Of a DNA stretch of 23,015 nt, positions 3,151 to 21,497 are shown piece by piece (positions within the stretch are counted from its first letter, which is position 1; the number at the start of each line of letters is the position of its first letter). The notes under the pieces were generated by a model, which did not search any database, was not told where the DNA came from, and worked only from the letters and a program-made list of their open reading frames with translations. The DNA lies in IMG/VR virus record IMGVR_UViG_3300010350_001258. The stretch is one strand, 5' to 3'. The position numbers and the translations under genes were made by a program. Source of the DNA: a virus.

Positions 3151-5739
3151 ATGATAATAAGGGAAAATATAAATTTTGAAAGAGGACAGGATCCAAAAAA
3201 GAGCCTTCGTATTGGAGTTCATCATTTAATTCCTCAAATAATTGAAAAATTCGAGGAATCTCCATTTGAACTTACTCGAAGAGGAGAAGTTTTAGATCTT
3301 GAACAGAAGTATGAAGTGTCTCCAGAAAATTTTCATAATCCTGCAGGGCATCCAAAATATGATTGGGAATTTGTAGATATTATGGAAGATTTTGAAGTTT
3401 CCATTCTTTATATGATCGATTTGAACAATGGCGAAATTTTAAGAAAAATGAAAGTTTCAAATCCTCGTATTGATGCAGAATATATTGATAATGAGAATTG
3501 GAAAATTACTTCTTTAAACCCCGATAAGATTTATGAAGAAATAGATCAAGATTATGCTTTAATTGATATTGCCGATGCTGCAGAATATTTATGGGATATG
3601 TATCAAAAGCAAATAGAGGAAGAAGAATTTGAGGATGAAGAGATTGATGAAAGCTTAGATTTTGAAAGAGGAAAAACACCAGAGCAAATTAAAAGAGATT
3701 TAAGAGGACATTTTCGTCCTGGCGAAATTTTGCTCCGTCCCGATAATGGATACAGTCCTCATCAAACAATTATGGTATTTAAAAGAATAACTCCGCCGGA
3801 TTATGCTGGAGAACAATATTATGAAGTAGCTACTTTAGGATATATCAATACTAAGGGAGAGATAAAAACCTACGGATCATCTCGCTTTGCAATGGATGAT
3901 TATAATACGAAAAATATGGTTTCCATCGATACTAAAACAAGATTCCCGAATAAAGAAGAAGAGCTACTTATAAAAAAATTCTTAAATAAAAGCAAAATTT
4001 GGAAAATAAAAGAAGCTATTGGAATTTATCCTATTCTTAATGGTAAATCTTTATCCTTAACGGAATCCGTTGATTTTGTCCGCGGTCAAGAAAATCCATT
4101 GGATTCTTTAGAGATAGGACGCGTTTTGGAAAGAATAAAAGAGCAAGTTATGGAAATAGGTCCTGATATAGCTCAAAAAACTTCTCTAGGATGGTTAGTT
4201 ACTCAAGTAAAATTTGTTGAAGGAATTCCAGAGGGTCAAGTTATCTGGAATTCTAAATCTTTAAAGGATCTTACCGAATCCGGATGGAAAAAACTTTTCA
4301 GAGAAATGAAAGAAATTAAATCAAAAATGTTTCCAAATATGAAGGAAGGATTAGAATTTAATAGGGGGATGGACCCAAGGGATTCTATGGAAATAGGAAG
4401 GATCGAGGAAAGAAGAGAGGCTTTAATAGATTGGATTATAGAGCAAGATCCTATAAAATGGACGGGAAGCTCTGTATTAGCTCCTTTTATTACTCGGAGA
4501 CATCCTCATCCATGGGGTTGGGATATGAAAAAATTTGAAGATGCTTCCCTTATGGAACTAAATCATATAAAAGAATATATTGAAAAATGGGAAGCCGTTG
4601 ATAAGAAATATAATGTCTTTGATGGACCAGCTTCAAAGGTTCATGAAAGATTAGATTTTGAAAGGGGAATGGATCCTAAACAATCTATGGATATTGGACG
4701 CTTTGCTAAGATCCATAAGATTACTAGCAGCGACTTAGAATTTTTAAAAATATACACTAATGATGGAGATGGGAAGGGCCATGTAAATGAAAAATTTTTC
4801 GAAGAAGTTTATCAGGATTCATCGGGATTTCCAAAATACTTAGAAAGAGTAAGGGAAGTTTATCAAATATTAGAGCCTTATGAATATCTTTTTGGGGATC
4901 GTTTTCCTTCAGATATGAAAAAAGAAATGAAGGAATATGTAAAAAGTTACTTAAAAAATCCTAAATATAATTACGCTTATAATTGTGATATTATGGGGGA
5001 TGGTGATGTTGATGTGTTCTTTTCAGAAATAAAGTTACCTTCTGCAGAACTTCTTGGAAAAAAACCTGGGTTAAAGGAATCCATTAATTTTGAAAGAGGC
5101 ATTGATCCTAAGAAATCTATGGGTATCGGCCTTAAAGCAAAAGTCTTGAAGGGATTATCTCGATTAGTTCAAGAATTACATATAGGTTCTATAAATTTAA
5201 GTGGAAACGGAACGGATCTTTGGCTAGAAGTTAGCGATTATGGAATAGCTAATTTTGAAGATTATTTTTTCTCGCTTTTAAATAAAGAATTTTTCAAACA
5301 ATATTATATAGAAGCAAAACCTCGAAAATATAAGAATTCATGGAAAAATGATTGGGTATTTATTATAAAACCGGAATACAAGTCTTCTTTTCGGGCTTGT
5401 TTTGATCGAAATGGATATTTATTAGCAGTCGACGAACTCGGAGAATCTCTTAATTTTGAAAGAGGATTGGATAAGGAAAAATTAAGAATTGGAAATATTC
5501 GTCCGGTTGAAAAACTTAAAAATGACTACAATGAAATTGTAAAATTCGTACAAACATCCAATGGAATAAAATTTCAGTATCCTTTTTCAAAAGAATCCAT
5601 GGAATATGTTTCAGATAAGAAGCATTTTGGATGGGGAAATATTCACGTCAATTTCAAGAATATGAGTAGGGAGGAACTTTTTCCCTTTGAATTAATTGTT
5701 CGCAAATATAAAAAGCTAATGGGATTAGATGAGTCTTAA
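3151..5739 (+). CDS. Modular hypothetical protein with seven 'FERG-DPK' tag repeats (putative polyprotein)
   Basis: 862-aa ORF. Tags start at aa 3, 165, 303, 397, 497, 641 and 763, separated by dissimilar ~95-160 aa domains. Confidence 0.85.
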   Translation: MIIRENINFERGQDPKKSLRIGVHHLIPQIIEKFEESPFELTRRGEVLDLEQKYEVSPENFHNPAGHPKYDWEFVDIMEDFEVSILYMIDLNNGEILRKMKVSNPRIDAEYIDNENWKITSLNPDKIYEEIDQDYALIDIADAAEYLWDMYQKQIEEEEFEDEEIDESLDFERGKTPEQIKRDLRGHFRPGEILLRPDNGYSPHQTIMVFKRITPPDYAGEQYYEVATLGYINTKGEIKTYGSSRFAMDDYNTKNMVSIDTKTRFPNKEEELLIKKFLNKSKIWKIKEAIGIYPILNGKSLSLTESVDFVRGQENPLDSLEIGRVLERIKEQVMEIGPDIAQKTSLGWLVTQVKFVEGIPEGQVIWNSKSLKDLTESGWKKLFREMKEIKSKMFPNMKEGLEFNRGMDPRDSMEIGRIEERREALIDWIIEQDPIKWTGSSVLAPFITRRHPHPWGWDMKKFEDASLMELNHIKEYIEKWEAVDKKYNVFDGPASKVHERLDFERGMDPKQSMDIGRFAKIHKITSSDLEFLKIYTNDGDGKGHVNEKFFEEVYQDSSGFPKYLERVREVYQILEPYEYLFGDRFPSDMKKEMKEYVKSYLKNPKYNYAYNCDIMGDGDVDVFFSEIKLPSAELLGKKPGLKESINFERGIDPKKSMGIGLKAKVLKGLSRLVQELHIGSINLSGNGTDLWLEVSDYGIANFEDYFFSLLNKEFFKQYYIEAKPRKYKNSWKNDWVFIIKPEYKSSFRACFDRNGYLLAVDELGESLNFERGLDKEKLRIGNIRPVEKLKNDYNEIVKFVQTSNGIKFQYPFSKESMEYVSDKKHFGWGNIHVNFKNMSREELFPFELIVRKYKKLMGLDES

Positions 5740-8700
5740 AGATAAATTAATAAAAGTTGCCTTTGGAAAATTAACTTCAGAAATCGAGAAATATAAGGGG
5801 TTCCTTAAAAAACCTGCTACGCTTCTCGCTTTAAAAACTGCTGCTTTTTCTTTGCTAAATATTCTACTTTCCCAATTAAAAGGTGTTATAGGTAAAAAAT
5901 TCACTGATGATGAAGCTTTATCCTATGTAAAAAATAATAGGGATCTCCAAAAGCTATGGGGTTTAATTGGGCAGGATGTAGAAGAATCCTATCTTAATGA
6001 AATACTTCTATTATGCGAAAATCCAAATTATTATGAACAAGATTTTGAAAATTTCCTAAAATCCTTGGATGGAAAAAATTTATCTGGAGAAGATTATATA
6101 AACTTGTTCAATAATTCTGATGAATTTGACAGAAAAACTTCTAATTATAAAAAGAGCACAGAAATGGCAAATGCTATTTCAAAAATAACTGAGGTAGCTC
6201 CCTGGGCATTTATGGTTTATGTAATTGGATTAAAGATAAAAGAATTTTTGTCTCAAAATGAAGATCCTTCACCATATAGAGGAAAATATCTTCAAAGACT
6301 TATTCGCACTATTTCATCTATATTAAAACAGAGAATCCAAGATGAAAAAAATGCTGTTAAGGGAGTAAAAGATGCTGCAAAAGCTATTTCGGAAAAAGAA
6401 AGAAAACAAATTGAAGCTATTCTAAAATCTTTAAAATCTTTAGATGCAATTATAGTTGGAAGCTTATTAGCTTCAGCAGTTTATCTAAGAAACCGAAAGC
6501 TTTTACAAAGTAAATCCATTGAATCATTCCAGGAAATACACTCTGCTCAATTATGCGAAATGATAACAGAACCGGAAATACCTGAAATTGTTCCAGTTCC
6601 GTTAGATGAAAATTTGGCCCTCTGCCCTGTTGATTTAGATGATAATTTAGTGCCTCATATTCCAATTGAATTATCAGATCTTTCCTGCGAAATACCTTTA
6701 GGACAGGATTCTTCAATTATGGAAGGATCCCAACCAGATATTGCGGCTAAAGCTCTTTATGAAAATACTTCTTCGGTTAACTTTAATATTTTAGTTAAAG
6801 CCGGGGATACCCTTAGAGTAAATGTTCCGATGGCTACTTATGATGGCGATAAAGTTTATCCTACTGTGAATGGAGTTGTAGAAAAAATAGAGTCTAATAA
6901 AATTTATGTTGAAAATATTTCAGACCCGGATCAAACATATTTAGAAGAAGTGGTCACTAAAATGAATGATGCTTATAAAGAATTGAATGATACTAAATTC
7001 TTTTTAGTTGATTTTTATATTCCTTCTTGGTATCCTGTAATGTTAAAATTTTCTCCTCTTATCGATGGAAGCCTTTCTATTCAAGAATCATTATTACTTT
7101 TCTATAAAACAGGAGGGGTAAAGAAAAGGTGGGATGGAATACAAAGTGATTTCGAAAAACAGAAGAAAGATTGGGATAAAAGAAATAAAGATATAGCCAA
7201 AGACAGTAAAGTAAAAGCCAAAGCCGAGGCTGAAAAGATGGACGATATTCGAGTTGAAATGAATCAAAGTGAAGAAGTTCTTTTTAAACAATTAAAGGCC
7301 GATGCTGTACAAGGGGTAAATGAATCCAAAGTAACTAAACCGGATGAAAAAGAATTCGAGCTTATAGAATATTACTTTTGGCTATCCCAAAAATTAATGG
7401 CTTATTTTGATAAGAATACTATTGCAACCACTATGATTAATAAAATATCTGAATTCCTAAGAGAAAGGTATTTTACCGACAAATATAGTGTAGATAAAAT
7501 AAAATCAAAAATCAATAACTATTGTAAGGATCTTTCTCAGGGAACTTTCTTTTCAGTTACCCCGGATTTTTATAAAATATTAAGACAAAAGTGGGACGAA
7601 TCTAATGCCCAAATAGGACAGCGTTTTACAGCTGCTGAGGACTATTTAAAGGATTTACAGAAAAATAACAAAAAACTAAATGACACTGAAAAAACCTCAT
7701 TACGTGAATTTATTTTATTCCTATTTAATTTTAGCATTGAGATCGATAAACTTATCGAAACAAAATACTCAACGGAAAAAACAAAATGGACTGAAACAGA
7801 ATTAGAAGGAATATGGATTGAACAATTCTTCGCTTCTCTTTGGAAAAGATATGATGCTCTTCCCGGGGAAATTGAAGGTTACCAAAAGGAATTAGATGAT
7901 ATTGCTCGTACTTTTACTACGTATTCGATTATAGTTATAAATGACGAACAATATAGATATTATTCAATTGGAGAAGCTGCATGTGAACCACCAGAAGAAG
8001 ATGACCCATATCTTTCTCCTAAAAGTAAAAAAGGATATGGTGATATTTCTTATTGGTTAAGATATTGTTCATTTGCTACTCTTGCAAGTGTTGCTAATCC
8101 GGCAACAAGTTGGTCAACAGGGGTTCCCCCTCCAATAGGTCCTATTCCTTTTCCAACCGTTTATATTCCAATAAAAGCTTTTGAAGTAAACTGGGGATTT
8201 ATTGTTGTTGGACTTACAATTACAGGTATTTATCCTTTCCCCTGGGCTCTGTTTGTTAACTGGTCTACCGAACATCATGTTCCTTTAGCAGATCCGGCAA
8301 CTTTAGTTAAAAAAGAAGTGGAAGCTTTAAAAAAAGAACTTTCTAATCAATTAAAGGAATTTAAAAAGGAAAGATTAAAAACTTATTTGGATAAAGCAAA
8401 AGAAGACATAAAATTTCTTCAAGAACAATTATCTGATTTGCAAAATCAAAAAAGAATTCTTAGGGAGCAAAAGCCCCGAAGAGATTATTCGGAAGAAAGA
8501 AAAGTCGATATTCCTAGATATACAACAGATCTAACAAAATGGACTGAAAAAATGCTAGTCTTAGACGAATTGATTTTAACCTCTAAGAAAGATAAAATGC
8601 AAGCGGAGATTAAATATAAGATCATTAAGGATGCTTATGATGGATCTCCTATTGCAAAAAATCAGGATGCTAAAATACAAGCTTTGCAAAACACAGAAGA

Positions 8701-9151
8701 AAAAATATTATCTCAATTTGATAAGCTAGATTTATTAATAGCTGGAATTGATAAGTTTTTAGCTCCACTTCCTATTGCAACAAAACCGGAGACAGCTAAT
8801 TTTGCATTTACTGTTAAAAATCCAAAACCTATTATTAATATGGCTACGAATATTGACCAGAATATAAATTATGGTCCTTTAAATAAAATTATAGAAAAAT
8901 TCGAGCCTAAAAATGAGGACTTAATGAAAACCAATTATGGTTCTATTTTATCCAAAACATTTAATAATTTCAAAGGATATAAAACAGCTTTGAAAGCAGC
9001 TATGCCTACTATAATTAAAAGCGATCCTTTTCCAAAATATGAGAATTTAAAACCTAGTAATCTACCATGGATGTCTTTCCTATTAAAGGAATGGGCTCCA
9101 ACAGGAGCAAAAACTTATGGATTTCCAGGATTTCCTCCGCTGCCTCTTTAA
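5729..9151 (+). CDS. Large hypothetical protein, probably virion/tail associated (coiled coils, lipoyl-like hairpin, hydrophobic Pro-rich domain)
   Basis: 1140-aa ORF overlapping the previous stop by 11 nt. Contains ILVKAGDTL...VYPTVNGVVEKI, a YWLRYC...PIGPIPFPTVYIP...GFIVVGLTITGIYPFPWALFVN segment and long K/E/L-rich helical stretches. Confidence 0.6.
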   Translation: MSLKDKLIKVAFGKLTSEIEKYKGFLKKPATLLALKTAAFSLLNILLSQLKGVIGKKFTDDEALSYVKNNRDLQKLWGLIGQDVEESYLNEILLLCENPNYYEQDFENFLKSLDGKNLSGEDYINLFNNSDEFDRKTSNYKKSTEMANAISKITEVAPWAFMVYVIGLKIKEFLSQNEDPSPYRGKYLQRLIRTISSILKQRIQDEKNAVKGVKDAAKAISEKERKQIEAILKSLKSLDAIIVGSLLASAVYLRNRKLLQSKSIESFQEIHSAQLCEMITEPEIPEIVPVPLDENLALCPVDLDDNLVPHIPIELSDLSCEIPLGQDSSIMEGSQPDIAAKALYENTSSVNFNILVKAGDTLRVNVPMATYDGDKVYPTVNGVVEKIESNKIYVENISDPDQTYLEEVVTKMNDAYKELNDTKFFLVDFYIPSWYPVMLKFSPLIDGSLSIQESLLLFYKTGGVKKRWDGIQSDFEKQKKDWDKRNKDIAKDSKVKAKAEAEKMDDIRVEMNQSEEVLFKQLKADAVQGVNESKVTKPDEKEFELIEYYFWLSQKLMAYFDKNTIATTMINKISEFLRERYFTDKYSVDKIKSKINNYCKDLSQGTFFSVTPDFYKILRQKWDESNAQIGQRFTAAEDYLKDLQKNNKKLNDTEKTSLREFILFLFNFSIEIDKLIETKYSTEKTKWTETELEGIWIEQFFASLWKRYDALPGEIEGYQKELDDIARTFTTYSIIVINDEQYRYYSIGEAACEPPEEDDPYLSPKSKKGYGDISYWLRYCSFATLASVANPATSWSTGVPPPIGPIPFPTVYIPIKAFEVNWGFIVVGLTITGIYPFPWALFVNWSTEHHVPLADPATLVKKEVEALKKELSNQLKEFKKERLKTYLDKAKEDIKFLQEQLSDLQNQKRILREQKPRRDYSEERKVDIPRYTTDLTKWTEKMLVLDELILTSKKDKMQAEIKYKIIKDAYDGSPIAKNQDAKIQALQNTEEKILSQFDKLDLLIAGIDKFLAPLPIATKPETANFAFTVKNPKPIINMATNIDQNINYGPLNKIIEKFEPKNEDLMKTNYGSILSKTFNNFKGYKTALKAAMPTIIKSDPFPKYENLKPSNLPWMSFLLKEWAPTGAKTYGFPGFPPLPL

Positions 9152-10098
9152 TCGTATGCTTTTTGAATCCTATTGGATAATTCAATTACTTTTTGATATT
9201 CTTCCGGAGTTAAACTTCCAAAAAGATAATAAATGGGATCCACTTTTTTATTATCTTTAATAACTTCGTAATGTAAATGGGGGCCTGTTGATAATCCAGT
9301 ACTTCCAACATAAGCAATAATTTCGCCTCTTGTTACTTTTTCGCCAGGCTTGGATTTAAATTTTTGAAGATGGGAATATAAAGTTTTGTAACCGTATCCG
9401 TGATCAATTATAATTAAGTTACCATACCCCTGAGATCTTTTATCCGAATCCTTAATGATTATTTGGACAACGCCATCCCCTGTAGCATATACTGGGGTTC
9501 CGAGGGGAGCTGTAAAATCCAATCCATAATGAAATTTGGGTATTCCATAAATAGGATGAGTTCTCATACCCCATCCAGACGCAATTCTTTTTAAGTTTTT
9601 ATTTTCGATTGGCTGAATAGCTGGGATGTGCAAAAGCATCTCTTGATGAGAATGTGCTAAATCTACAAGTCCATCAAGCTGGTATAATTCCTTGGCCATC
9701 TTGTCGTTTAATATACTTATTCTATTATTAGTTTCCTGAACGACAGACATATAAAAATTTGGACTTATATCATCAAATTCCAGCCCCATTTGTTTTCGCG
9801 GTTCCTGATTTATATCAAAGATAGATTGATAAATTATACTATCATGTTCTTTTATCATTCCAAGAGTCGTTTCAGCTTCTATAATTCTTTTATTTATATT
9901 ATTAAATTCCTCAACCAGATATACCAAATCTTTCCTTAATTTTTTCTCATCTGGAGTATCATAATAAGTAGAAATAATAAAAACAAAAATAGATGAAATA
10001 ACAACTTGTATTAGAAAAAAAGGAATTAGAAACTTTCCTCTAAAAAACCTAAATCTTTTATAGGAGATGGAATTTTTCTCAAATGTATAAAACTTCAT
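9148..10098 (-). CDS. Peptidase M23 family murein endopeptidase with N-terminal transmembrane helix and coiled coil
   Basis: Zn motifs HYGLD (HxxxD) and HLHYEV (HxH), plus GTPVYATGDG and YGNLIIIDHGYGYKTLYSHL. Hydrophobic N-terminal segment FLIPFFLIQVVISSIFVFII. Confidence 0.95.
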   Translation of the reverse strand: MKFYTFEKNSISYKRFRFFRGKFLIPFFLIQVVISSIFVFIISTYYDTPDEKKLRKDLVYLVEEFNNINKRIIEAETTLGMIKEHDSIIYQSIFDINQEPRKQMGLEFDDISPNFYMSVVQETNNRISILNDKMAKELYQLDGLVDLAHSHQEMLLHIPAIQPIENKNLKRIASGWGMRTHPIYGIPKFHYGLDFTAPLGTPVYATGDGVVQIIIKDSDKRSQGYGNLIIIDHGYGYKTLYSHLQKFKSKPGEKVTRGEIIAYVGSTGLSTGPHLHYEVIKDNKKVDPIYYLFGSLTPEEYQKVIELSNRIQKAYD

Positions 10099-10110: not shown

Positions 10111-10140
10111 TTATTATATATTTTTAGTAGATAAATATAA
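10111..10140. promoter_or_regulatory. Divergent late-promoter-like motifs (GATAAATATAA on + at 10130-10140; AATATATAA on - at 10114-10122)
   Basis: 54-nt intergenic gap between divergent genes. Each motif lies 12-15 nt upstream of its ATG. Confidence 0.55.
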
Positions 10141-10152: not shown

Positions 10153-10887
10153 ATGAAACTTGTTTGCGAATCATTAGAAGAATTATACGGAATTGATATA
10201 GAAGCTCCTGAATATTCCGCTGGAGAAAAAGCTGCTATAACAAAAGGACAGGATGTTTTAACTAAACAACAATTAGCTGCAATGTATTTAGCTGCTAAAG
10301 ATGCTATGGGAAGATCCGAGGATACCCGTGGCAGGGGGGATACTGCTCTGACACGTAATGCTATAAAAATTAATAAGGAAGAAAGCACAGATTTTAAAAA
10401 ATTATCTATTCCAAGATTAGGAGATGTATTGGATCTTAAACCCCGAACAGTGAGTTATACAATATCAAAATTTAGACTTTTAATGCAAGGAAATCGTGAA
10501 GGAATTCATGGGAATGATTTATATGAAAAAATAATAAACGCATTTGATGAATTTGATAAAATGGAAAAAGAAGGCAGATCAGGGGAAGTACATGCATTAG
10601 CCGCAGAAGCTGTAAATATGAATGCAGGAACAGAAAGATCTACAAAATATGAGGAAGAATTAGCAGGCCAATACAAAAAAACAAAAGAAAGAATAGAAAG
10701 AAGAAACAGGAAAATAATGCAAGATACCTATGATTTATATAATCAGCTTAGAGGGCCTTTTGGAGAAAGAGCACCAAAAAAGATTATTGATAAACTTTCA
10801 TTAGAATATGGTTTGTCTCCAGAAGATATTCGCACAATAATTAAGACAAATCTTAAAAACGATCCCAATCTAGCAAGAAAATTTTAA
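10153..10887 (+). CDS. Hypothetical protein (helical), N-terminal leader MKLVCE-SLEE
   Basis: 244-aa ORF behind a late-promoter motif. No recognisable catalytic motif. Confidence 0.8.
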   Translation: MKLVCESLEELYGIDIEAPEYSAGEKAAITKGQDVLTKQQLAAMYLAAKDAMGRSEDTRGRGDTALTRNAIKINKEESTDFKKLSIPRLGDVLDLKPRTVSYTISKFRLLMQGNREGIHGNDLYEKIINAFDEFDKMEKEGRSGEVHALAAEAVNMNAGTERSTKYEEELAGQYKKTKERIERRNRKIMQDTYDLYNQLRGPFGERAPKKIIDKLSLEYGLSPEDIRTIIKTNLKNDPNLARKF

Positions 10888-10894
10888 AAAAAAT

Positions 10895-10914
10895 ATGAGA
10901 GCACAATTTGTTAA
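10895..10914 (+). repeat. Direct repeat, left copy (ATGAGAGCACAATTTGTTAA); right copy at 11531-11550
   Basis: 19 of 20 nt identical to 11531-11550. The two copies bracket the GIY-YIG gene. Confidence 0.85.
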
Positions 10915-10920
10915 AATGGA

Positions 10921-10930
10921 AATAAATATT
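10921..10930 (+). promoter_or_regulatory. Putative late promoter of the homing endonuclease (AATAAATATT)
   Basis: ATAAATA core at 10922-10928, 13 nt upstream of ATG 10942. Confidence 0.45.
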
Positions 10931-10941: not shown

Positions 10942-11550
10942 ATGGTTTCGGGGATAATATATTGTGCTACTTTACCATCTAATAAAAAATATTATGGGTT
11001 TTCTTTAAATTTGGAAAACCGAAAAAGAACCCATAAATGCCATGTAAATGCAGGAACCAAGAATAAGTTTTATAATGCTATTAGAAAATATGGATGGAAT
11101 AATATTATATGGGAGATAATTGAAAAACATGATGCAGAATGTAAAAAGGATTTAAAAGAAATCCTATGCAATCGAGAAATGTATTGGATTGCAAAATCAA
11201 ATACTTTTTTGGATGGATATAATATGACCGAAGGAGGGGATGGGGCGTTAGGATTATTATGGAAGGAAAATTCCAAAGAAAAATTAAGTGAAACTCAAAG
11301 GGGAAGAAAATTATCGGACAGTCATAAGAAAAATATTGGATTGGGATTGATCGGGAAATCCAATGGTATGAAAGATAAACATCATGATGAAAAAACAAAA
11401 CATAACATAAGTAAAAAATTAGAAGGAATAAAAAGATCAAAAGAAACTAAAGATAAAATGGGAAAATCTAAAATAGGAAAAAATAATCCTATGTATGGGA
11501 AAATCCCGTGGAATAAAAAAATCGATAAAAATGAGAGCAAAATTTGTTAA
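10942..11550 (+). mobile_element. Free-standing GIY-YIG homing endonuclease with NUMOD3 repeats (Seg-like)
   Basis: GIIY...KYYG motif, conserved Arg (NRKRTH), Glu (NREMYWI) and GYNMTEGG. C-terminal NUMOD3-type repeats (SDSHKKNIG, HDEKTKHNIS, RSKETKDKMG, NPMYGK, IPWNK). Confidence 0.92.
11531..11550 (+). repeat. Direct repeat, right copy (ATGAGAGCAAAATTTGTTAA)
   Basis: Holds both the start of the downstream gene and the endonuclease stop codon (TAA 11548-11550). Confidence 0.85.
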
Positions 11551-12325
11551 TGAGGGATACGGGCAGAAAGATTATGTGAGAATGGAGGATATAAAAACCA
11601 AGGCTAATGGTGATCATGATAAGGAAATTTCCTTAGCTACAACACAAGCTAAAATTATTCAAGATGCTGGTAAAGCACAGGCACGAGCTGAAGCAGCAGA
11701 AAAAGTATTTGGCGCTGGGAGCGATATTTCTCAGATATTCCATGATCGAGCTGTCGAATTAGGGGGATCTCATGTTGTTGGAAAAGCTTCTAAACAAGTT
11801 CTTGCTCCCGTTACAGGTCCGGTAGAAAAGGGACAAAAAATCGAAAGAAAATTTAAAACCCAATATCTTCTTCCATCTGAAAGATTAGGGGCGGCAGCTC
11901 CCGAAATAGGGCAAGCTAAAACAGGCGGTGGTGGTTTTACAAGAGATCGTGGAGATGTTTTTAAATCTATGGGTATTGGAAGATTTTCTACTCCTCCAGA
12001 AGTTGGGGGAAAAAGACTTTCAGATGCTTCTATTCTGCCGCTGGGGAGAGTTAACTTTGGAACCGGGGAATCCCCATATTTTAACGTTTATGACACTTAT
12101 GACGGAACTGCAGAAATATGGAAAGATCATAGTGGAAATTTCAAAGTTGTATTTACCTCGGGGGATAAACCCCTCGCAAAATTAAAAGACTATAGGGATT
12201 TTAGACACGATCAAACCTGGCAAAAAATGGGCCAATGGATTATGGTAGACTATGTTCCTGTAAAAGAAATGAAAGAACTTATCCGTGTTTATGGCGGAAG
12301 TTTACCAGGATATACATATAAGTAA
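11531..12325 (+). CDS. Hypothetical protein, N-terminal leader MRAKFVNE (start moved from 11495 to 11531; 264 aa)
   Basis: The MRAKFV start matches the neighbouring MRAQFI (12331) and MRAQFV (10895) starts. The 11495 start would lie deeper inside the endonuclease gene. Confidence 0.8.
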   Translation: MRAKFVNEGYGQKDYVRMEDIKTKANGDHDKEISLATTQAKIIQDAGKAQARAEAAEKVFGAGSDISQIFHDRAVELGGSHVVGKASKQVLAPVTGPVEKGQKIERKFKTQYLLPSERLGAAAPEIGQAKTGGGGFTRDRGDVFKSMGIGRFSTPPEVGGKRLSDASILPLGRVNFGTGESPYFNVYDTYDGTAEIWKDHSGNFKVVFTSGDKPLAKLKDYRDFRHDQTWQKMGQWIMVDYVPVKEMKELIRVYGGSLPGYTYK

Positions 12326-12330: not shown

Positions 12331-12693
12331 ATGAGGGCACAATTTATAAGAGGAGCAGAATCCAAAAAAGAAATCCTTGATAAAATTCTGAATAGAATTA
12401 TTACTCTTGAAATGATGTGTGCTAATGTCGAATTAAATTCAAAAGGTAATTTAGATCAAACAGATAAGGATACTAGATATTTTGTTAATTATCTAAAGAA
12501 AGTAAACGTAGATTTTAAAGTTACCGGGAAAGACAAAAATGGAATGGTATATGTAACTATTTCCGGGCCAAAGGAAAATATAGTTAAAGCTTTAGTTCAA
12601 TGGGATGCTCACGGAAGAAACCAAAAACAATTAGCAAAAGCTCTAGAAGATTGGAATGGTGATGAAGAAGATTTATGGGATATAATAGGATAA
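12331..12693 (+). CDS. Hypothetical protein, N-terminus MRAQFIRG
   Basis: 120-aa ORF packed 5 nt after the previous stop. The N-terminus combines the MRAxF leader with an FxRG element. Confidence 0.8.
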   Translation: MRAQFIRGAESKKEILDKILNRIITLEMMCANVELNSKGNLDQTDKDTRYFVNYLKKVNVDFKVTGKDKNGMVYVTISGPKENIVKALVQWDAHGRNQKQLAKALEDWNGDEEDLWDIIG

Positions 12694-12694
12694 T

Positions 12695-13003
12695 ATGGGA
12701 ATTGTTAAAGAATATATTGATTTTGAAAGAGGACAGGATCCTAAGAGGTCTATGAGAATCGGAAAAGCTTCAAGATCTTTTGAAGATAGTCTAGAAGCTG
12801 GGGAATATGTTAGAGATAACTTATTTGAAATTACAGGATTTGAAGAAATTATTACAGATCCCGAAAATGAAGATCAAATCGTTCCTGAATTAGCAGATAA
12901 ACTATATAAATGGTATAAGGAAAATGAATATCGTATCAAAGATAAAAATGAAGAAGATTTTTGGGAAGCATTTATTGATTGGGAAAATTTAAGATATAGA
13001 TGA
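12695..13003 (+). CDS. FERG-tag protein (single module)
   Basis: Starts MGIVKEYIDFERGQDPKRSMRIG; 102 aa with an acidic cargo domain. Confidence 0.85.
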   Translation: MGIVKEYIDFERGQDPKRSMRIGKASRSFEDSLEAGEYVRDNLFEITGFEEIITDPENEDQIVPELADKLYKWYKENEYRIKDKNEEDFWEAFIDWENLRYR

Positions 13004-14034
13004 GGGTAGTTAGAGAAAATATAAATTTTCATATAGGAAAGGATCCTTTGAAGAACTTGAATATCGGTCTTACCGGTAAATGGATGGGTCTTCAAAAAGG
13101 GGATTTTCTAAAAGTAAAAAGGGATTTTACTGTTGACCACGGAAACCATTTTAATGATAATTCTAAATATCGAGAATTTACAAATTCCGATCAATCCGAG
13201 ATTTATTTACAAATAGAAACCCCGCCCCAGGCTTATCCCGATGGGTGTATTGGAATAACAGCTTATGCTGCTCATCTCCCATCAAATTCATTTAAGTGGA
13301 GATCCAGTAACGATTATTTTATATGGGGAACTCCAAAAGAATTTGAAGAAAGATTGAGCATTCTTAATGATATAGATGAAGCACAGCATTTTCAGAGAGG
13401 AAGGAATCCAAAGGATTCCATGAGAATCGGAAGATATGGGGAGAGAAATATCCGAAAAGCTTTAGATAAATTAGCCGAATTAAGGGGCGGGAAATACCAG
13501 ATTCATTTTAATAAAAATCAAAAGTATATTGAGGGAAAATATACTATCAGTAATCAATATAAAAATTTTAGAACAGATTATTTTTTCATACGTTTTTATC
13601 AAGATCCCCAGGAATATTTTACTTATGGTTATTTAATTAATGGAGTAGTTGCAAAAGAAAGAATTATTCAAACAGAAGATGAAGGGGTTCAAGAAATACT
13701 AAAGCATTTGCATCCTTTACCCAAAATGGAATCTATTAACTTCGAAAGAGGGATGGATCCAAAGAGAGCTATGAAAATAGGAAAAATTATTCGTCCATTA
13801 AAAAAGGGGGATAAGATAAAGGTATGGGTCCCCACTGAAGAAAGAACTCTAGAAGTTAGAGTTACAGAGGATGAAAAAATAAAATCAGATGGAACTCCTC
13901 ATATAGAAAAATTCTTTTCTAATTCAAAACCCACTAGGGAAGTTAGAAGGGTTTGGGTTAGATATTTAGGGGATATAAGAACTGCTAATATGGATATTAA
14001 TTCAGATAACCCAATATGGGTTTTACATGTTTAA
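13000..14034 (+). CDS. FERG-tag protein (three modules)
   Basis: Tags at aa 1 (VRENINFHIGKDPLKNLNIG), aa 125 (IDEAQHFQRGRNPKDSMRIG) and aa 243 (MESINFERGMDPKRAMKIG). ATGA overlap with the previous gene. Confidence 0.85.
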   Translation: MRVVRENINFHIGKDPLKNLNIGLTGKWMGLQKGDFLKVKRDFTVDHGNHFNDNSKYREFTNSDQSEIYLQIETPPQAYPDGCIGITAYAAHLPSNSFKWRSSNDYFIWGTPKEFEERLSILNDIDEAQHFQRGRNPKDSMRIGRYGERNIRKALDKLAELRGGKYQIHFNKNQKYIEGKYTISNQYKNFRTDYFFIRFYQDPQEYFTYGYLINGVVAKERIIQTEDEGVQEILKHLHPLPKMESINFERGMDPKRAMKIGKIIRPLKKGDKIKVWVPTEERTLEVRVTEDEKIKSDGTPHIEKFFSNSKPTREVRRVWVRYLGDIRTANMDINSDNPIWVLHV

Positions 14035-14370
14035 TTACCAAATAGAAAGAGGCAATCTTTTCCATCTTTTAGATTGGGGAACCCACACATAAAGATAATT
14101 TTCATCAACACATATATGAGTTTGAGGATTAACCATTAAAGAATCCGGGGGTAGTTCCGGCATTTCATCCTGGTTCGAAAAAGCAACGGCAGTTACATTT
14201 TTCTTTAGTATATCTTCATCAATCCGAATCTGAAAAACATTTCCTAATTTTTCAATAGATATAATTCCAGGCTTTCTCCAGGCTTTAGAATCTATTAATA
14301 AAAAAGTATTTAAGGGATCAACTGATTGAGGGGAAATTTCTTTATTTTCCTTATGAAATCTATCTTCCAT
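14035..14370 (-). CDS. Small hypothetical protein ending in a tail-fibre-type C-terminal motif (ATG start at 14370; 111 aa)
   Basis: Ends ICVDENYLYVWVPQSKRWKRLPLSIW, resembling the D-x-x-Y-h-Y-V...W-K-R-x-x-L-x-x-W terminus I recall from phage fibre/virion proteins. The ORF track start at 14376 is TTG. Confidence 0.6.
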   Translation of the reverse strand: MEDRFHKENKEISPQSVDPLNTFLLIDSKAWRKPGIISIEKLGNVFQIRIDEDILKKNVTAVAFSNQDEMPELPPDSLMVNPQTHICVDENYLYVWVPQSKRWKRLPLSIW

Positions 14371-14692
14371 CTCCAAGGTATTTAACTTCTAAATCAAATT
14401 CGTTTTGTAATATAGTTTGGATTAAGTCTATTTGGTCAACAGTACAATTCATCTTTCGGCAATATTCGGTAAAAGCTTTTGATGGATCCTCCTTATCAAA
14501 ATAAATTTTCATAAGAATTCCTTTTAATGCAAAGGCAGCATTTTCTTCAGATCTCCCAAATAAATGCCACATAGAAGATTCAAATCTGTTATGAAGATCC
14601 TTGATCATTTGGAGCATTTTAGATCCTAACCCCATTGCTTGCTTTGGATCTAATCCTCTTTCAAAATTTATACTTTCTCTAACTATAGACAT
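14360..14692 (-). CDS. FERG-tag protein (single module)
   Basis: Starts MSIVRESINFERGLDPKQAMGLG; 110 aa with a helical cargo. Confidence 0.85.
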   Translation of the reverse strand: MSIVRESINFERGLDPKQAMGLGSKMLQMIKDLHNRFESSMWHLFGRSEENAAFALKGILMKIYFDKEDPSKAFTEYCRKMNCTVDQIDLIQTILQNEFDLEVKYLGDGR

Positions 14693-15203: not shown

Positions 15204-18200
15204 ACAACCGTTACCAAACCTTCCCAAACCTGGGTTTTTAAGTTTCCGTATTTATCATACGATTCTACTTGAATATCATAGGTTCCTATTTGATCAAATA
15301 TAAATGGAACGCTTTCATTAAATACCCTAAAAAGAATATTAGATTCATTATGTTCTTTTACAGTCCAAATATTTTTTTGATCAAGCATATAATTGCTAGG
15401 ATCATAAACAGCTTTAAATATGACTAAAGTGCTTGAATCTACTTCTATTGGTTTACAATGATAATAGAATTCTGAATTGATTAGGTTATCAGAAGCATTA
15501 TACCATTGCTGATTTACATAATCCTGATCAAAAAGAATATTAATTACTACAAATGTGTTGTCTAGAAAATATTCCTGACAATATGAATCCTTTAAATATA
15601 ATTTAAAAGTATTAAATTGTTCTACAGCATAATCTGTAGGAATTGTCATATCAGAATATGAGGAAAATGCATGTTTTACTTTGATTGAATATTTCCCAGG
15701 ATTATTTATAAAGAACTGAGGAATAGTTTGATCAAAAGTATGAGTAGATCCATCGACATTTGTAACTCTATATGATGAACCCCAAGAATATCCGGTGCTA
15801 CCATCAAAAACAATTACTCCAGTTAGCTGGCCAACTTCAAATTGGTATCCGCTTACATCAAGCACAAGATTATCTCCTATATTAGCAGCATTTACAGTCG
15901 TTCTGTATGTGTCATTTAAAACATATACTTCTGCAGAACCACTAATGGAAATATCAATAGGCCAAGGAGAAATGGTTAAATCATTTCCCGAAATAGAATC
16001 TATATGAGCGCTAACCTCTCTTATTAAAGAATATTTTCCTTTATCAAATTGAACTATTCTTATATCGTCTTCGTCATAAAATTTTTGATAATCTGGATCT
16101 ACTGTAATTATTGGATTATTCATAGAGACGACTCTCTCTGTTAAATTAAAGAATCTATTGAGAGAATCTGGTTCCATGACATCCTGGAAATATGTGATAG
16201 AAGGAATTTCAATATAAGGGGATCCCGAGGCATCAAATTGCAATGAAATCCCCTGAAGAGGAATATACCTATCGAATAAAGGATAAGGATTTTCTGATAT
16301 AAGTGTGCTAACTTCTAAAACAGACATGCTACTAACATCTGGAGCAGAATATAAGGAATTATCCGTAATAACATAAATTCTTGGGAACTTAGTCCATACA
16401 GGATAAAGAGTTTCCATTTTATTAGAATATATGTTATTAAATCCATCCCATGCAAATACTTCAATATAAAAATCCCCAGTATGATTGACAGTCATAATAT
16501 AAATACTGTTATCTATTACTCTTGCAGGATAAGGATCCGAGCCATAGATGGAATAGTAAATTGATGGATCATAAACCGCTAAGGGCATTCTTGAAGAATT
16601 ATAAACAACATTTACAGTGATCATTTGTTCATCTAAACTAGTATCATAATTCCAATTTAGATTATATTCAACAGAAATAATATTTCCAGAGCTTGGGTCG
16701 GAAACCCAAGGTTTTGATCCCTGTATACTAGAATCCATTACTATTTTTCCATCAAGAATATCTAAGAAATATTTCTTTGGAATAGAAGTAATAATTCCGG
16801 AGGCATCTGTAAATTTATAATTTTGAAAGCTTAAAAGAGGAACTCTATAATTTGAATCAAATTCATAAAGAAGAACCGAGCCTGTATCCGGAATTAAATT
16901 AACATAGGAATTAAACTTAAATAAATCTAAGCCCGAGGAGCTTTCCATCCAATAATATCCTAATCCAGATGGATCTGGATAAATTTCATAAGCTTTAGAA
17001 GAAGCCCAATCATCATTCGAAGGATCTCTTAAAATAGCATTTTCAAGAAGTATATTTAAATTCGATGAAACGTCATAAAATTGAGAAGAGGAATCCAAAA
17101 TATTATAAAAACGAAGATCATTTTCATAAACGAATAATGGTTTTGTTACTAATTTGTCTATAATAGTTCCTGCATCAGTTTTTTCTACAGAAGCTCTCCA
17201 TTGAATATCAAATAAATCAATAAAAGGAAATTGGAATGTCGATCCTACGAGAACTGTAGATGGGTCATACCAATATAAAGACGCATCCACCAAAGAAAAT
17301 TGCCCATTTGAAGGATCCCAACAATATTTCAATAAATCTTTGAATCTTACTTGTAGTGCCTCGATTGGCATTTTTTTCAATTCCTCCAAAGTTAATCTAA
17401 TACTTGCATCTCCTCGGATTAATTCTGAACTTTCATCTAGGGTGTCTGGAGAAATAGATTGCTCAAAAATAGCTTCAGACCCTATTGTATTAGTTCCATA
17501 AACAAGATTTCTAAATCTTTCAAAATAAACCCCCTCGCCTGTAATATCTGTAATCCTGGCATTTACTCCAATAATCCATCTTTCAAGCCACTGTTTAAGA
17601 GCATATAATTTGATAAAAATTTCATTAATATTATAATTATAGCATTCCTCAACAATAGGATTACCCCATTGATCAATTTGCCCAGTTTCCCTAGTTAAAC
17701 AGTAAACAAGTGACAATTGATTTAATTTCTTTAAATTTCTTCTTTCATCTGGGGAAAAATAAAGAAGGGTTTTTGTTCTATCAGCAGCATCATAAGGAAC
17801 TGTAAGAGAAAGTTTTTGTCCATCTTTAACATTTTTAAACCACTCTTTAACCTGAATATCTTCATATCCAAGCCATTTTATTGCATTGATAAGACCTTTA
17901 TAAGTTCCAATATAAGGCATGATTTTATCATGTTCCAGGATAATGTGTTTTGCTTTATAATTCAAAAGCTTCCAGTCAGGAAGATCCTCATTTATATCTG
18001 CTTCTTTAAAAAGAGTATGATTAGCTTTAGGACTTGGTAATCCAAAATTAGTTATAAGGGTATCAAATCTTTCATCGGGTCCAACCGATTCAGCATTAAC
18101 CAATATTTCATAAATAAGGTATTCTGTATTTCCTACTTTATGGAATACTCTAAGTCTTCTTTCAAAAACCCCTTCTGTTTCTGCACGGAATCCAACATTA

Positions 18201-18841
18201 ATCATTAATCCTGTTTTTTCCGCATATTCAGTTGTATCAATTATGATCTCATCAGCCCATTCCACAAGCTGATTTTCTTCATCAATTTCAAATAATTTAA
18301 TTTCAGGATCTCCATCAGTAAATCTAAAGATTAAATAGGGGTTAATAGGATCATAAGGCCTAATTAAAGCTCCTGTTGAAGATTCTTCGATAATCGTTAA
18401 GTGCTCAGTTTCGACAAGCCCTTGAGAAATAGGATTGAGGAATATCGCTGAACTAAAAGAAACAGCTGGATAAAGAAATGATGGATCCGGCAAAGTAATG
18501 GTTACGCTCTCTATTGCTGGAGAGGGATGTAAACTTGGATCTGCAATAAGAACACTCTTAAATCCAATAGAAACTTCGGAGGGGCTTAAGGTTTTGGGAT
18601 AAGTATTCGTATCAAATGAAAAAGAATAGTTTAATTTTACTTGTGTATCATCTGGATATTCCCATCCGCTATCTGTAACTTTAACTCCTACAATATAATT
18701 ACTTGGATCTGTTATAGCATAAGCGGCAGCTCCCGTTGCATCTGTATTCGTAGCAACAAAAGTAAGAGGCAAATATGAATCTGCAAATAAATTTAGAGGG
18801 CTTCCCGCTTTATCAAATATTTTCCAATTTTGATGATTCAT
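15200..18841 (-). CDS. Baseplate wedge protein, T4 gp7 / P2 gpI-like, with extended beta-rich C-terminal region
   Basis: Downstream of gp25-like and gp6-like genes. YIGTYKGLINAIKWLGY resembles the gpI/gp7 motif, and GAAAYA...IVGVKVTDSGWEY resembles T4-like wedge repeats. Two PKD/Ig-like ends: GDFYIEVFAWDGFNN and GTYDIQVESYDKYGN. Confidence 0.6.
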   Translation of the reverse strand: MNHQNWKIFDKAGSPLNLFADSYLPLTFVATNTDATGAAAYAITDPSNYIVGVKVTDSGWEYPDDTQVKLNYSFSFDTNTYPKTLSPSEVSIGFKSVLIADPSLHPSPAIESVTITLPDPSFLYPAVSFSSAIFLNPISQGLVETEHLTIIEESSTGALIRPYDPINPYLIFRFTDGDPEIKLFEIDEENQLVEWADEIIIDTTEYAEKTGLMINVGFRAETEGVFERRLRVFHKVGNTEYLIYEILVNAESVGPDERFDTLITNFGLPSPKANHTLFKEADINEDLPDWKLLNYKAKHIILEHDKIMPYIGTYKGLINAIKWLGYEDIQVKEWFKNVKDGQKLSLTVPYDAADRTKTLLYFSPDERRNLKKLNQLSLVYCLTRETGQIDQWGNPIVEECYNYNINEIFIKLYALKQWLERWIIGVNARITDITGEGVYFERFRNLVYGTNTIGSEAIFEQSISPDTLDESSELIRGDASIRLTLEELKKMPIEALQVRFKDLLKYCWDPSNGQFSLVDASLYWYDPSTVLVGSTFQFPFIDLFDIQWRASVEKTDAGTIIDKLVTKPLFVYENDLRFYNILDSSSQFYDVSSNLNILLENAILRDPSNDDWASSKAYEIYPDPSGLGYYWMESSSGLDLFKFNSYVNLIPDTGSVLLYEFDSNYRVPLLSFQNYKFTDASGIITSIPKKYFLDILDGKIVMDSSIQGSKPWVSDPSSGNIISVEYNLNWNYDTSLDEQMITVNVVYNSSRMPLAVYDPSIYYSIYGSDPYPARVIDNSIYIMTVNHTGDFYIEVFAWDGFNNIYSNKMETLYPVWTKFPRIYVITDNSLYSAPDVSSMSVLEVSTLISENPYPLFDRYIPLQGISLQFDASGSPYIEIPSITYFQDVMEPDSLNRFFNLTERVVSMNNPIITVDPDYQKFYDEDDIRIVQFDKGKYSLIREVSAHIDSISGNDLTISPWPIDISISGSAEVYVLNDTYRTTVNAANIGDNLVLDVSGYQFEVGQLTGVIVFDGSTGYSWGSSYRVTNVDGSTHTFDQTIPQFFINNPGKYSIKVKHAFSSYSDMTIPTDYAVEQFNTFKLYLKDSYCQEYFLDNTFVVINILFDQDYVNQQWYNASDNLINSEFYYHCKPIEVDSSTLVIFKAVYDPSNYMLDQKNIWTVKEHNESNILFRVFNESVPFIFDQIGTYDIQVESYDKYGNLKTQVWEGLVTVV

Positions 18842-18847
18842 GGATAA

Positions 18848-19144
18848 TTAATTAATGTTTATACTTTCTTTATCGTGTGCTATAGAAAAAGTCTTTTTGA
18901 TGTATTTTACTTGTTCCAGTATAAATTCTAGCATTCCCTCAAGTTGGGCAAAAAGAGGCTTTTGCCTTGGGTTTGACCAAAGTTCGGGGGAAGTCATCTT
19001 TTGTAAAATTTTACCTTGATAACCGTATCCAAGATTTAAAAAATTATCTGAAAGATGTTTAGCAGAATTAAGATAAGAGGGTCTAACTCTAAATCTTTGG
19101 CTCTTACTGCTTACTGCGTTTTGTTTTTGAGTTGCTGTTGCCAT
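18848..19144 (-). CDS. Small hypothetical protein in the baseplate operon
   Basis: 98-aa ORF coupled to the gp6-like stop (TAATG) and ending 6 nt before the gp7-like start. Confidence 0.75.
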   Translation of the reverse strand: MATATQKQNAVSSKSQRFRVRPSYLNSAKHLSDNFLNLGYGYQGKILQKMTSPELWSNPRQKPLFAQLEGMLEFILEQVKYIKKTFSIAHDKESININ

Positions 19145-21039
19145 TATAAGTTAGAAACAATAGTTTTATTTTGATTGGAATTAAAGTTAACTGGGGTAAT
19201 TCCCCTCAATTGAATATTTACTGTTGAAAGTCTATCCTTTGCAACTGAATCATCATAGGTAATCCCGAGTTGACTTTCGAATCCCCCTCTAATGAGAGGA
19301 TAAATATCCTTAACAGTTACTCTATTTCCAAATGCGTCTAATACAAATCTCTCAAGAATAATATCTCCGTAATCATCAAGTCCATATCCATTTCCATAAA
19401 TTTGGAAATTATTTTTATCTGCATCGAACCAGACAGAGACAGAGTCTACTCCATCGATGCCTTCAATTATTCTGACTAAATCTGATTGAGGAATTCTATC
19501 CCTTCTAGTATTTTTCAAGAAATAATCAGATGTTTTAGAGATAATTTGCTCCCTAATGTTGTTAAGATCGTAACCTTCATAGATAACTAAAGCAACATTA
19601 AGAACAAACTTAGGATAACGAAGGGTCATAATAGCATTATCTACAGTTAATATTCTTTGACCGCTTTCTTCAATTAGATCCAAAATTCCTTTCTTTTCAA
19701 GATCTGTTAATTGAAAAGAATCAAGCCCGCAAGTAAAATAATTCTGATTTGCAGGAATTCTTTGATTGACATCAGGAACTAAATAAAGATAAACGGTATT
19801 ATCGTCTTTCTTTTGTTCTTCAACTTGAGCCTGCCAATAATAAAGCTGATTCTGAGCATTATCTAATTCTGTTTTCTTAGCAAGAGATTGAGAAGCTGAA
19901 GCACCAACGGTTGCTAATAAAGTCCTGTATTGTTCGCTTATATTCTCATAAGTGGTTTTAGCTACATTATATTTGTCCACTGCATATCTGTCTTCAAAGG
20001 TTGAAAATCCAGGAATGGCATCAACAATCGTGAACATATTAAGCTTACGTAAAAAATAGATGTAGTTATCGGTATTAGCTAAAACAAAACTTCTTGACAT
20101 GTGAGGAGCAAGTAATCTTGTTAAGTAGACTGGCTCTTCATTAGCTCCAAATAAAACATCCTTCTGGATGGAAACCCTAAGAATTTTATTAAGATCTATT
20201 TCTTGGCTATTAATTGAATAACCCTTTCCTTCAAATTTCCAATTTGTTGTGGTTTTAGCTTCAGCAGTTCTAATATTTCCTGCATCCCCATCAGTTAACA
20301 AATATTCTACAAGGATCGTTGAACCAAGTGGGGGAACAGCACCATTATATCCATTTCCAAAGAATACGTCGATGCCGCCAGTTTGTCCTGTTTTAACTAT
20401 AACAGATTCTTCATTGAAATTCATATCAAGAATGGATTCTCTCTTTGCCCATTTTTTACCATTCACATAAATGTTAACAAAGAAATTATCTATGATGGAT
20501 CCTTTTTTAGCTTGAAAATTAAATGATTGTAAAGGATCCCCTGTTCCTGTTGACTGCTGATATTCTAATTTGCCTTGAACAATATTTACATCAACATAAT
20601 TGGTTACAGACCCAAGATCTAATCGAACCTCATTCCCAGGTAAAACTACTGTATATGTAAGTCCATTATAAGTTGATGTCAATCTTGTATAATTAGGAAT
20701 AACTGCGGTGTTTCCATAAATATCTAATTTCTGCCCATTATAGAATAATCTTAGAGTTCCCCTAGCAGCTACACCTCTGGATGAATTATGACCCGTTAAG
20801 CTTGCAAGTCCTTTTACACTTTGGGAACGAGAAGCTGTATTGATGTTTAATTCAGTAATGGAGTCTTCAATATAATATAGGATTGTCCTACCAATATTAA
20901 GAACAACCTGAAGAAGCTGACCCATAGGAGATGCCATGGTAAAATATTGTCCGGCATCTTCATACGTTTGTTTTATAAAGTTAATTGAATCCTGATATAA
21001 TTCAGATAATCGGATTCGGGCAGTTTTAATTATACTCAT
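19144..21039 (-). CDS. Baseplate wedge protein, T4 gp6 / baseplate J-like
   Basis: N-terminal helical region with ARS..SVKGLASLTGHN..RGVAARGTL. Central STGTGDPLQSF and VFFGNGYNGAVPPLGSTILVEYLLTDGDAGN motifs, followed by GANEEP and DNTVYLYLVP. Confidence 0.88.
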   Translation of the reverse strand: MSIIKTARIRLSELYQDSINFIKQTYEDAGQYFTMASPMGQLLQVVLNIGRTILYYIEDSITELNINTASRSQSVKGLASLTGHNSSRGVAARGTLRLFYNGQKLDIYGNTAVIPNYTRLTSTYNGLTYTVVLPGNEVRLDLGSVTNYVDVNIVQGKLEYQQSTGTGDPLQSFNFQAKKGSIIDNFFVNIYVNGKKWAKRESILDMNFNEESVIVKTGQTGGIDVFFGNGYNGAVPPLGSTILVEYLLTDGDAGNIRTAEAKTTTNWKFEGKGYSINSQEIDLNKILRVSIQKDVLFGANEEPVYLTRLLAPHMSRSFVLANTDNYIYFLRKLNMFTIVDAIPGFSTFEDRYAVDKYNVAKTTYENISEQYRTLLATVGASASQSLAKKTELDNAQNQLYYWQAQVEEQKKDDNTVYLYLVPDVNQRIPANQNYFTCGLDSFQLTDLEKKGILDLIEESGQRILTVDNAIMTLRYPKFVLNVALVIYEGYDLNNIREQIISKTSDYFLKNTRRDRIPQSDLVRIIEGIDGVDSVSVWFDADKNNFQIYGNGYGLDDYGDIILERFVLDAFGNRVTVKDIYPLIRGGFESQLGITYDDSVAKDRLSTVNIQLRGITPVNFNSNQNKTIVSNL

Positions 21040-21497
21040 AGTATTTTACTATATTTTTCTCGATTCTTTTTTAAATTTTTTAGCCAGTCCTGAATATCAT
21101 CAGTATAAACTAATTTTGTATCCCAGGATAAATGCCATTGGGGTCTATTTTCAATAGCTAAATCTGTTAAAACCTGAATAAGTTTTTTCCCATCATCTTC
21201 AGATAGACATTCAAATTTAACGGCATTACCCTCTAATACCCTAACAACCCTAACATAAAAATGGTTCCATTTAGATATTGAAATATCTTCCGGATTTACT
21301 CCTGCATTCATAAGTAATTCTACAGTTTTTGCTATATTTTCAATATGCAAATTTACTTTTTTATCTTCCTCCCCTGATTTATCCCAGGTGGTATCAAATT
21401 CGACCCCCTTTTGTTCAAGGGATTTTCGAATACCTATCTCAAGAGCATCCTTTGGATTTTTTCCTCTCTCAAAGTTAATATTTTCTCTAACTAACAT
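21036..21497 (-). CDS. FERG-tag protein (single module) inserted between gp25-like and gp6-like genes
   Basis: Starts MLVRENINFERGKNPKDALEIG. Overlaps both neighbours (TAATG and ATGA). Confidence 0.85.
   Translation of the reverse strand: MLVRENINFERGKNPKDALEIGIRKSLEQKGVEFDTTWDKSGEEDKKVNLHIENIAKTVELLMNAGVNPEDISISKWNHFYVRVVRVLEGNAVKFECLSEDDGKKLIQVLTDLAIENRPQWHLSWDTKLVYTDDIQDWLKNLKKNREKYSKIL

Follow-up and report, generated by a model that had tools for sequence, protein, structure and literature searches.

What kind of signal is a short peptide motif that recurs thirteen times along one stretch of viral DNA, each time in front of an unrelated domain? The stretch, here called the window, is 23,015 nucleotides (nt) long, one strand of IMG/VR virus record IMGVR_UViG_3300010350_001258, with a guanine-cytosine (GC) content of 32.5%, and the motif, here called the tag, is spread over positions 3,151-21,497. 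A sequence-only reading had counted 13 tags in five open reading frames (ORFs), distributed 7/1/3/1/1, and had likened them to the capsid targeting sequence (CTS) of the phage T4 internal proteins, i.e. an address label on a swappable library of cargo domains. All 13 copies are found at the positions it gave. Our analysis points to a label in two parts, a leader ending in a predicted protease site and a tag that would stay on the cargo. The anatomy is plain: the tag lies at a fixed position after a protease-type site, it occurs in dialects, the modules are shuffled whole, and the cargo is soluble. From this anatomy we infer loading by the leader, docking after the cut, injection and effector activity.

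The tagged ORFs of the window and their predicted cut sites are the following.

3151..5739, plus strand: seven-module polyprotein of 862 residues (ORF), whose orthologues gain and lose whole modules
nt 3166, 3652, 4066, 4348, 4648, 5080 and 5446, plus strand: predicted starts of the polyprotein products, with sizes of 162, 138, 94, 100, 144, 122 and 97 residues
3157..3216, plus strand: predicted cut site and tag 1 of the polyprotein (motif)
3643..3702, plus strand: predicted cut site and tag 2, with a variant second half (motif)
4057..4119, plus strand: predicted cut site and tag 3 (motif); module 3 is deleted in the relative L229
4339..4398, plus strand: predicted cut site and tag 4 (motif)
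4639..4698, plus strand: predicted cut site and tag 5 (motif)
5071..5130, plus strand: predicted cut site and tag 6 (motif)
5437..5493, plus strand: predicted cut site and tag 7, one residue short (motif)
12331..12693, plus strand: a 14th, Glu-less variant, with an M-x3-F-x-R-G start and a variant second half (motif)
12695..13003, plus strand: single-module tagged protein of 102 residues, site and tag at 12704-12763
13000..14034, plus strand: three-module protein of 344 residues, sites and tags at 13009-13068, 13372-13431 and 13723-13782
14360..14692, minus strand: single-module tagged protein of 110 residues, site and tag at 14624-14683
21036..21497, minus strand: single-module tagged protein of 153 residues, flanked by two baseplate wedge genes, site and tag at 21432-21491

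The Phe codons of the 13 tags lie at 3175, 3661, 4075, 4357, 4657, 5089, 5455, 12722, 13027, 13390 and 13741 on the plus strand and at 14665 and 21473 on the minus strand. This Phe and the following Gly are invariant, and a Glu stands exactly four residues ahead of the Phe in 13/13. The pattern E-x3-F-x-[RI]-G matches 14 times in the six frames of the window, whereas 300 shuffles gave 0.74 matches on average and never more than 4; one of the 14, near 14927, is an apparent chance match. The consensus proposed earlier describes most copies, while polyprotein copies 2 and 7 and the first copy in 13000-14034 deviate from it. The first copy had been placed within about six residues of the start, which holds for the Glu (residue 5-6) and not for the Phe (residue 9-10), and the Glu-less variant at the start of ORF 12331-12693 had been overlooked. 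Other parts of that reading stand. The predicted products, of 94-162 residues, agree with its cargo size of about 95-160, BLAST detects no similarity among the modules of the window, which belong to 13 different families, and the codons vary synonymously, i.e. conservation is at the peptide level; in a relative, tag codons match genome-wide usage.

How far does the tag spread? Exact DNA patterns of the tag were found at dozens of IMG/VR loci, and a tag profile, the search that the earlier reading had called for, retrieved 1,762 protein clusters at 50% identity, the richest chain having 12 tags in 1,511 residues. Where the fetched contexts were informative they were phage-like. The relative G002, which is syntenic with the window and has baseplate proteins 84-88% identical, carries 37 tags in 133 kb, and G033 carries 58 copies in 84 kb. 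At G033 1-22400 (L250, L251) a 22-kb run consists almost wholly of tagged genes. The complete 405-kb genome G010, whose capsid protein is 79% identical to that of G002, has 86 copies in 63 of about 473 ORFs (the capsid tree of the group is a quick version only).

In the 596 Gb of GTDB there was one exact-pattern match, on a phage-like contig; scanning metagenomes with GC-type codons returned 29 phage-type loci plus three GC-rich chance matches. Host copies were not found in these two scans, which used strict patterns only and no profile search of Bacteroidota genomes. An equal frequency of the motif in unrelated cellular proteins, named earlier as a refutation, was thus not seen in the searches run. 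One contig that carries the tag and is filed under an archaeal bin also bears a T4 portal gene. Three contigs of the phage group, L052, L223 and L227, are filed in archaeal (Diapherotrites, Methanofastidiosum) and Paceibacterota bins and are probably mis-binned phage DNA. The polyproteins had no tblastn match in catalogued phages and plasmids, Atlas gave no usable match, and literature searches, with subscription journals largely outside their reach, found no paper describing the motif.

What precedes the tag? N-terminal copies follow a short basic leader that ends in hydrophobic-x-Glu, and unrelated proteins share a short N-terminal leader ending in L/I-x-Glu, as is typical of the T4 CTS. Among 497 internal tags, Glu is at -4 in 97%, L/I/V/M at -6 in 84% and Ser at -3 in 78%. 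This enrichment is not circular, because the pattern that found the internal tags of the window's dialect (A) specified no Glu at that position, and Glu is present in 379/389 of them. In G010, whose tags are of a second dialect (B), Glu has a fixed position (-2) in 85/86 tags, and among 331 internal dialect-B tags in database proteins 99% have the Glu site.

T4 gp21 is described as cleaving after L/I-X-E (PMC9026906). A gp21-type prohead protease and a gp23-type capsid protein are encoded in G002, G010, G011 and G024; in G002 the protease, of the S77/gp21 type, is fused to the scaffold. Throughout the group protease and scaffold form one gene of about 780-980 residues, with Glu sites at the junction (G002 60768-63299; G010 306661-309003). 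The N-terminus of the capsid protein has two L-N-E sites within its first 45 residues, kept across relatives, and hydrophobic-N-E sites in the scaffold number 12 compared with 1.2 expected and 8 compared with 1.1 (7-10x density). The proposed link between tag and head maturation is therefore supported, since the same site type occurs in the capsid propeptide and scaffold of relatives beside a gp21-type protease. An AlphaFold model of 13000-14034 has three domains with a predicted local distance difference test (pLDDT) score of ~70-90 and a predicted template modelling score of 0.31; the tags have pLDDT <50. As the low-confidence stretches lie exactly over the tags, the cut sites should be accessible. 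These features make it very probable that the prohead protease cuts after each [LIVM]-x-Glu site, and probable, with somewhat less assurance, that the tagged modules are packaged in the head.

The same type of leader is found on untagged proteins (MoxR ATPase, a peptidase-vWA protein, lysozyme) and on proteins of relatives, known from partial genomes, where no tag was seen. Two such genes lie in the window.

10153..10887, plus strand: untagged protein with a leader ending in Val-x-Glu
11534..12325, plus strand: untagged protein with a leader of the M-R-A-K type and a Glu site; its homologue in G010 bears a dialect-B tag

A GIY-YIG endonuclease gene at 10942-11550 (+) lies directly ahead of the gene at 11534, and a short M-R-A-Q-F copy of the leader start lies just upstream of the endonuclease (10890-11550 (+)), as if the latter had been inserted into the 5' end of that gene.

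What follows the predicted cut is the most conserved part. The tag core has 14 residues, F-x4-D-P-x3-M-x-I-G, and starts two or four residues after the Glu; it would therefore remain on the product, opposite to the T4 CTS. The comparison with T4 thus fits the leader and not the F-E-R-G part. Tag conservation is no lower inside a chain than at its start (internal 42.5, first 42.3 bits, p=0.2). At third codon positions the variation matches the genome average, whereas F, D, P, I and G hardly change. With internal copies no less conserved than first ones and a codon use that is that of the genome, selection acts on the peptide in every module.

The tag occurs in three dialects. Dialect B of G010 is acidic with the same spacing as A, and a third form, ending in I-G-I-G, is found on five ORFs of G017 (12283-19473 and 54851-55570; L241, L243), the cargo of one of which resembles LRR-like cargo by eye. 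A charge inversion between dialects was considered and dropped, A being near neutral (+0.4) and B acidic (-3.4). Each genome has one predominant dialect and no protein carries two, yet 12 cargo families are found with A as well as with B. Taken together, this suggests that the tag binds a receptor that co-varies with the dialect.

The cargo is highly diverse. The 1,398 modules, with a median of 121 residues, form 423 families, 257 of them singletons. The largest cluster, of 174 modules, comes from single linkage, is not homogeneous, and consists mostly of LRR-like solenoids. Membrane-like segments occur in 0/1374 cargos compared with 65/677 of all ORFs. Recognisable domains are ankyrin, LRR and GNAT, and a scan of 94 polyproteins added only single weak matches to these. 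A fold search with the commonest cargo gave only weak LRR matches (E >0.3), and PADLOC gave weak matches that were not used. Some chains open with an untagged enzyme ahead of the tagged modules, an Acb1-like 2H domain or a HAD hydrolase.

Modules move as units. Orthologues of the seven-module gene have four, six or seven modules, and distant chains have the same modules reordered. In L229 module 3 is deleted by a crossover within the F-x-R-G codons of tags 3 and 4. Of two breakpoints in L031, one falls inside a tag and one outside. Patterns of the type X-Y-Z vs X-Z were found 31 times. The cargo family behind tag 7 is also a stand-alone gene in L229 and G002, and the cargo of 14360-14692 is the last module of fusions in relatives. 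With modules shuffled whole and 423 families, the idea of a peptide tag on a swappable cargo library holds well beyond the window.

Is the tag always behind a cut site? In 48 proteins, nearly all single small modules, the chain begins Met-x-Phe directly with the tag and lacks the site. Their cargos largely form families of their own, with some in common with the Glu class. Of 44 Met-start tags, 9 have a host-type promoter motif directly upstream, compared with 2 of 93 Glu-site tags (p=6e-4); at the operon level such a motif heads 8/16 Met-start and 6/63 Glu-site units. A late-type motif is found for 41/63 Glu-site tag units compared with 142/449 untagged units, and a similar one precedes the protease and baseplate-region genes of G002. 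All five tagged ORFs of the window lie in runs behind such motifs.

3126..3135, plus strand: late-promoter-like AT motif ahead of the polyprotein gene (pattern match)
10130..10139, plus strand: late-promoter-like motif heading the gene run 10153-14034 (pattern match)
21871..21880, minus strand: late-promoter-like motif heading the baseplate run that includes 21036-21497 and 14360-14692 (pattern match)

The enrichment of Met-start genes behind host-type promoters is what mainly points to a role of the tag after head loading or independent of it, and it is suggestive only.

These observations can be joined into one model, which we consider somewhat more convincing than not as a whole: cargo enters the prohead and is cut there, and the tag that stays on it docks on a putative receptor. 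By analogy with T4, the short basic leader ending in [LIVM]-x-Glu would take a protein or polyprotein into the prohead. A gp21-type protease would then, on strong indications, cleave after each such Glu, which would remove the leader and split polyproteins into soluble modules of about 120 residues. If so, it follows from the sequence that each module starts with 1-3 residues and the 14-residue tag. More weakly, the tag may be a post-cut docking handle for one co-varying receptor, hence one dialect per genome, and may help to keep the cargo in the head, to eject it or to place it in the infected cell; the products of Met-start genes with host-type promoters would bear this handle too, but bypass the head. 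The DNA of the tag would double as a crossover point at which modules are added, lost and reordered whole, as seen in one case and likely in general. The cargo (ankyrin, LRR-like, small novel folds, some GNAT) would most likely bind host proteins early in infection.

Tentatively, this can be extended to a second sorting layer beyond the clip-off signal of T4. Cutting would unmask a genome-specific N-terminal handle on ~60-100 modules, early genes would make the handle directly, and a single phage machine or host site would then receive both the injected effectors and those newly made; the polyproteins would be cassette arrays that recombine at the tag. For the receptor, a MoxR AAA ATPase and a DUF2201 peptidase-vWA protein are a candidate only. 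Their genes lie among tagged genes and have Glu-site leaders (G002 120665-125700; L043:7665-12700), and the ATPase, with a conserved hydrophobic-x-Glu site just before the AAA domain, may be a processed head protein. As reasons for caution, the pair has already been described in jumbo phages (PMC7824862), and weaker homologues of it occur in the tag-free Lak-B5 and LR756500.

Several points weigh against the two-part model. The window cargos have no known domain, family or fold match, with nothing meaningful from a fold search of the three-domain protein at 13000-14034, so the effector label rests on the cargos of relatives. Modules of at least 120 residues, some with long repeats, may not pass the portal folded. 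The head genes were read in G002 and G010, which stand in for the window's own, and the promoter patterns were defined post hoc on the same genomes with rough operon calls. The genes of the T4 internal proteins are expressed early and their products are packaged nonetheless, so a Met-start protein behind an early promoter could still be packaged.

Could the retained tag itself be the head-loading signal? It would then bind the scaffold, the inner face of the capsid or the portal, the Glu site would merely separate modules, and the Met-start class would be packaged too. A phage structural receptor would fit one dialect per genome, repeated tags would give avidity, and in the complete G010 most leader-bearing ORFs are also tagged (63 tagged ORFs, few leader-only). 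However, leader-only proteins exist, conserved ones among them, partial genomes of relatives show leaders but no tag, and Met-start tags are enriched behind host-type promoters. One signal would also suffice per polyprotein, yet the internal tags are fully conserved. We regard this explanation as rather unlikely.

It is improbable that the modules, once packaged and cut, remain in the particle as inner-body or assembly components rather than being injected as effectors. Tagged genes do have baseplate, neck, portal and head genes as neighbours and lie behind late-type motifs, and jumbo phages are described as having processed inner-body proteins (PMC9026906, PMC13282480). However, 423 families, 257 of them singletons, that turn over rapidly at orthologous sites suit conflict better than a structural role, and the cargo includes ankyrin, LRR and GNAT, with an Acb1-like 2H domain in one chain.

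We give still less credence to a tag that binds nothing and is chiefly a DNA cassette for recombination, or a leftover of leader duplication. The clean deletion of module 3 inside tag codons and another breakpoint just after tag 6 agree with it, and repeats are reported to mediate modular shuffling in T4-type phages (PMC2839356), but the freely varying third codon positions beside nearly fixed residues, and dialects that keep spacing and hydrophobic pattern though the DNA differs, do not.

The notion that the motif is the first element of a fold common to all modules, or a common cellular motif, is largely refuted: in one model, made with a 40-row alignment, the D-P half begins a helix running into the cargo while the first half is low-confidence coil, but the tag is of low confidence in both models, precedes unrelated folds, gives no confident fold with cargo, has no Pfam, PHROG or PDB match (nor have the tagged proteins of the window in Pfam or PHROG, and the earlier reading had not recognised the motif as a named family), and has that single match in GTDB.

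Which phage carries this system? The window belongs to a Lak-related, T4-like jumbo phage. The genes around the tagged ORFs include ones of T4-like baseplate families and others for an M23 peptidase, a GIY-YIG endonuclease and Hsp20 (22646-23014 (-), cut by the window end). Identity to Lak megaphages is 42% for the baseplate wedge protein and 48% for the capsid protein. The M23 peptidase at 9148-10098 (-) has an N-terminal hydrophobic segment and 41-43% identity to Bacteroidota chromosomal-type M23 proteins, and its gene is probably host-derived. Because of this closest similarity, and because relatives have promoter motifs of Bacteroidota type, the host is probably a member of Bacteroidota. 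A 1140-residue protein at 5729-9151 (+) has no family match, adjoins the baseplate hub gene in 5/5 relatives checked (26-68% identity), and is probably an unrecognised structural protein. Elsewhere in the group, an ORF at G002 35275-35652 (L038) resembles ribosomal protein L7/L12 by eye, and the G010 proteome (L127-L147) contains hundreds of collagen-like Gln-Gly-x repeats.

As judged from its genes, then, the phage probably packs a large, exchangeable set of proteins into its capsid, where the set is cut apart. If true, the packaged and injected proteome of an uncultured group of ~400-kb phages could be read from sequence; it would take in 63 of the ~473 ORFs of a complete genome and >400 cargo families, hardly any with a known function. 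These would be a ready library for finding anti-defence and host-takeover proteins, and a tailed phage would provide an example of cassette polyproteins processed in trans. It would also become testable how head proteins stay in the capsid after scaffold removal and then reach the ejection route or a site in the cell.

How does this compare with known systems? Dialects A and B were not found in Lak-B5, LR756500, LR756502 or PTm1, although Lak megaphages are the closest catalogued genomes. In phiKZ, 201phi2-1 and SPN3US, a different lineage, dozens of head proteins are likewise cut after Glu by a gp21 homologue; these cuts remove propeptides, and the sections of PMC9026906 consulted describe no retained common tag or cassette polyproteins. 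Polyvalent proteins of phages and conjugative elements (Iyer et al. 2017, PMC5512222) also join many unrelated, shuffled domains per chain, and have been proposed to be packaged and then released by proteolysis. According to the sections consulted, they carry embedded zincin-like peptidases and mostly enzymes, with no repeated junction tag described. Here the modules are of ~120 residues and mostly not recognisable enzymes, the protease would act in trans, and the peptidase and typical enzyme domains of polyvalent proteins (MPTase, ART, MTase, MuF) were not found in the 94 scanned polyproteins.

The closest likeness is to the T4 internal proteins IPI-III and Alt, unrelated small proteins described as having only a short N-terminal peptide in common and processed by gp21 (PMC9026906, PMC12373910). 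The three internal proteins are anti-restriction proteins that share only the leader (PMC12373910). Here too the predicted cut is after hydrophobic-x-Glu by a gp21-type (S77) protease, and the repertoire varies between relatives. Two defining features of the T4 CTS, a shared peptide that is removed and a signal that is N-terminal only with one protein per gene, do not appear here. The T4 CTS has ~10 residues, is N-terminal and is removed, whereas here the most conserved part follows the predicted cut and would stay. Unlike the CTS, the tag recurs internally, up to 12 times per chain and 86 times in one 405-kb genome, has genome-specific dialects, and heads genes that lack a cut site. The loading-and-cutting half has a clear precedent in T4; the retained, internally recurring tag departs from it.

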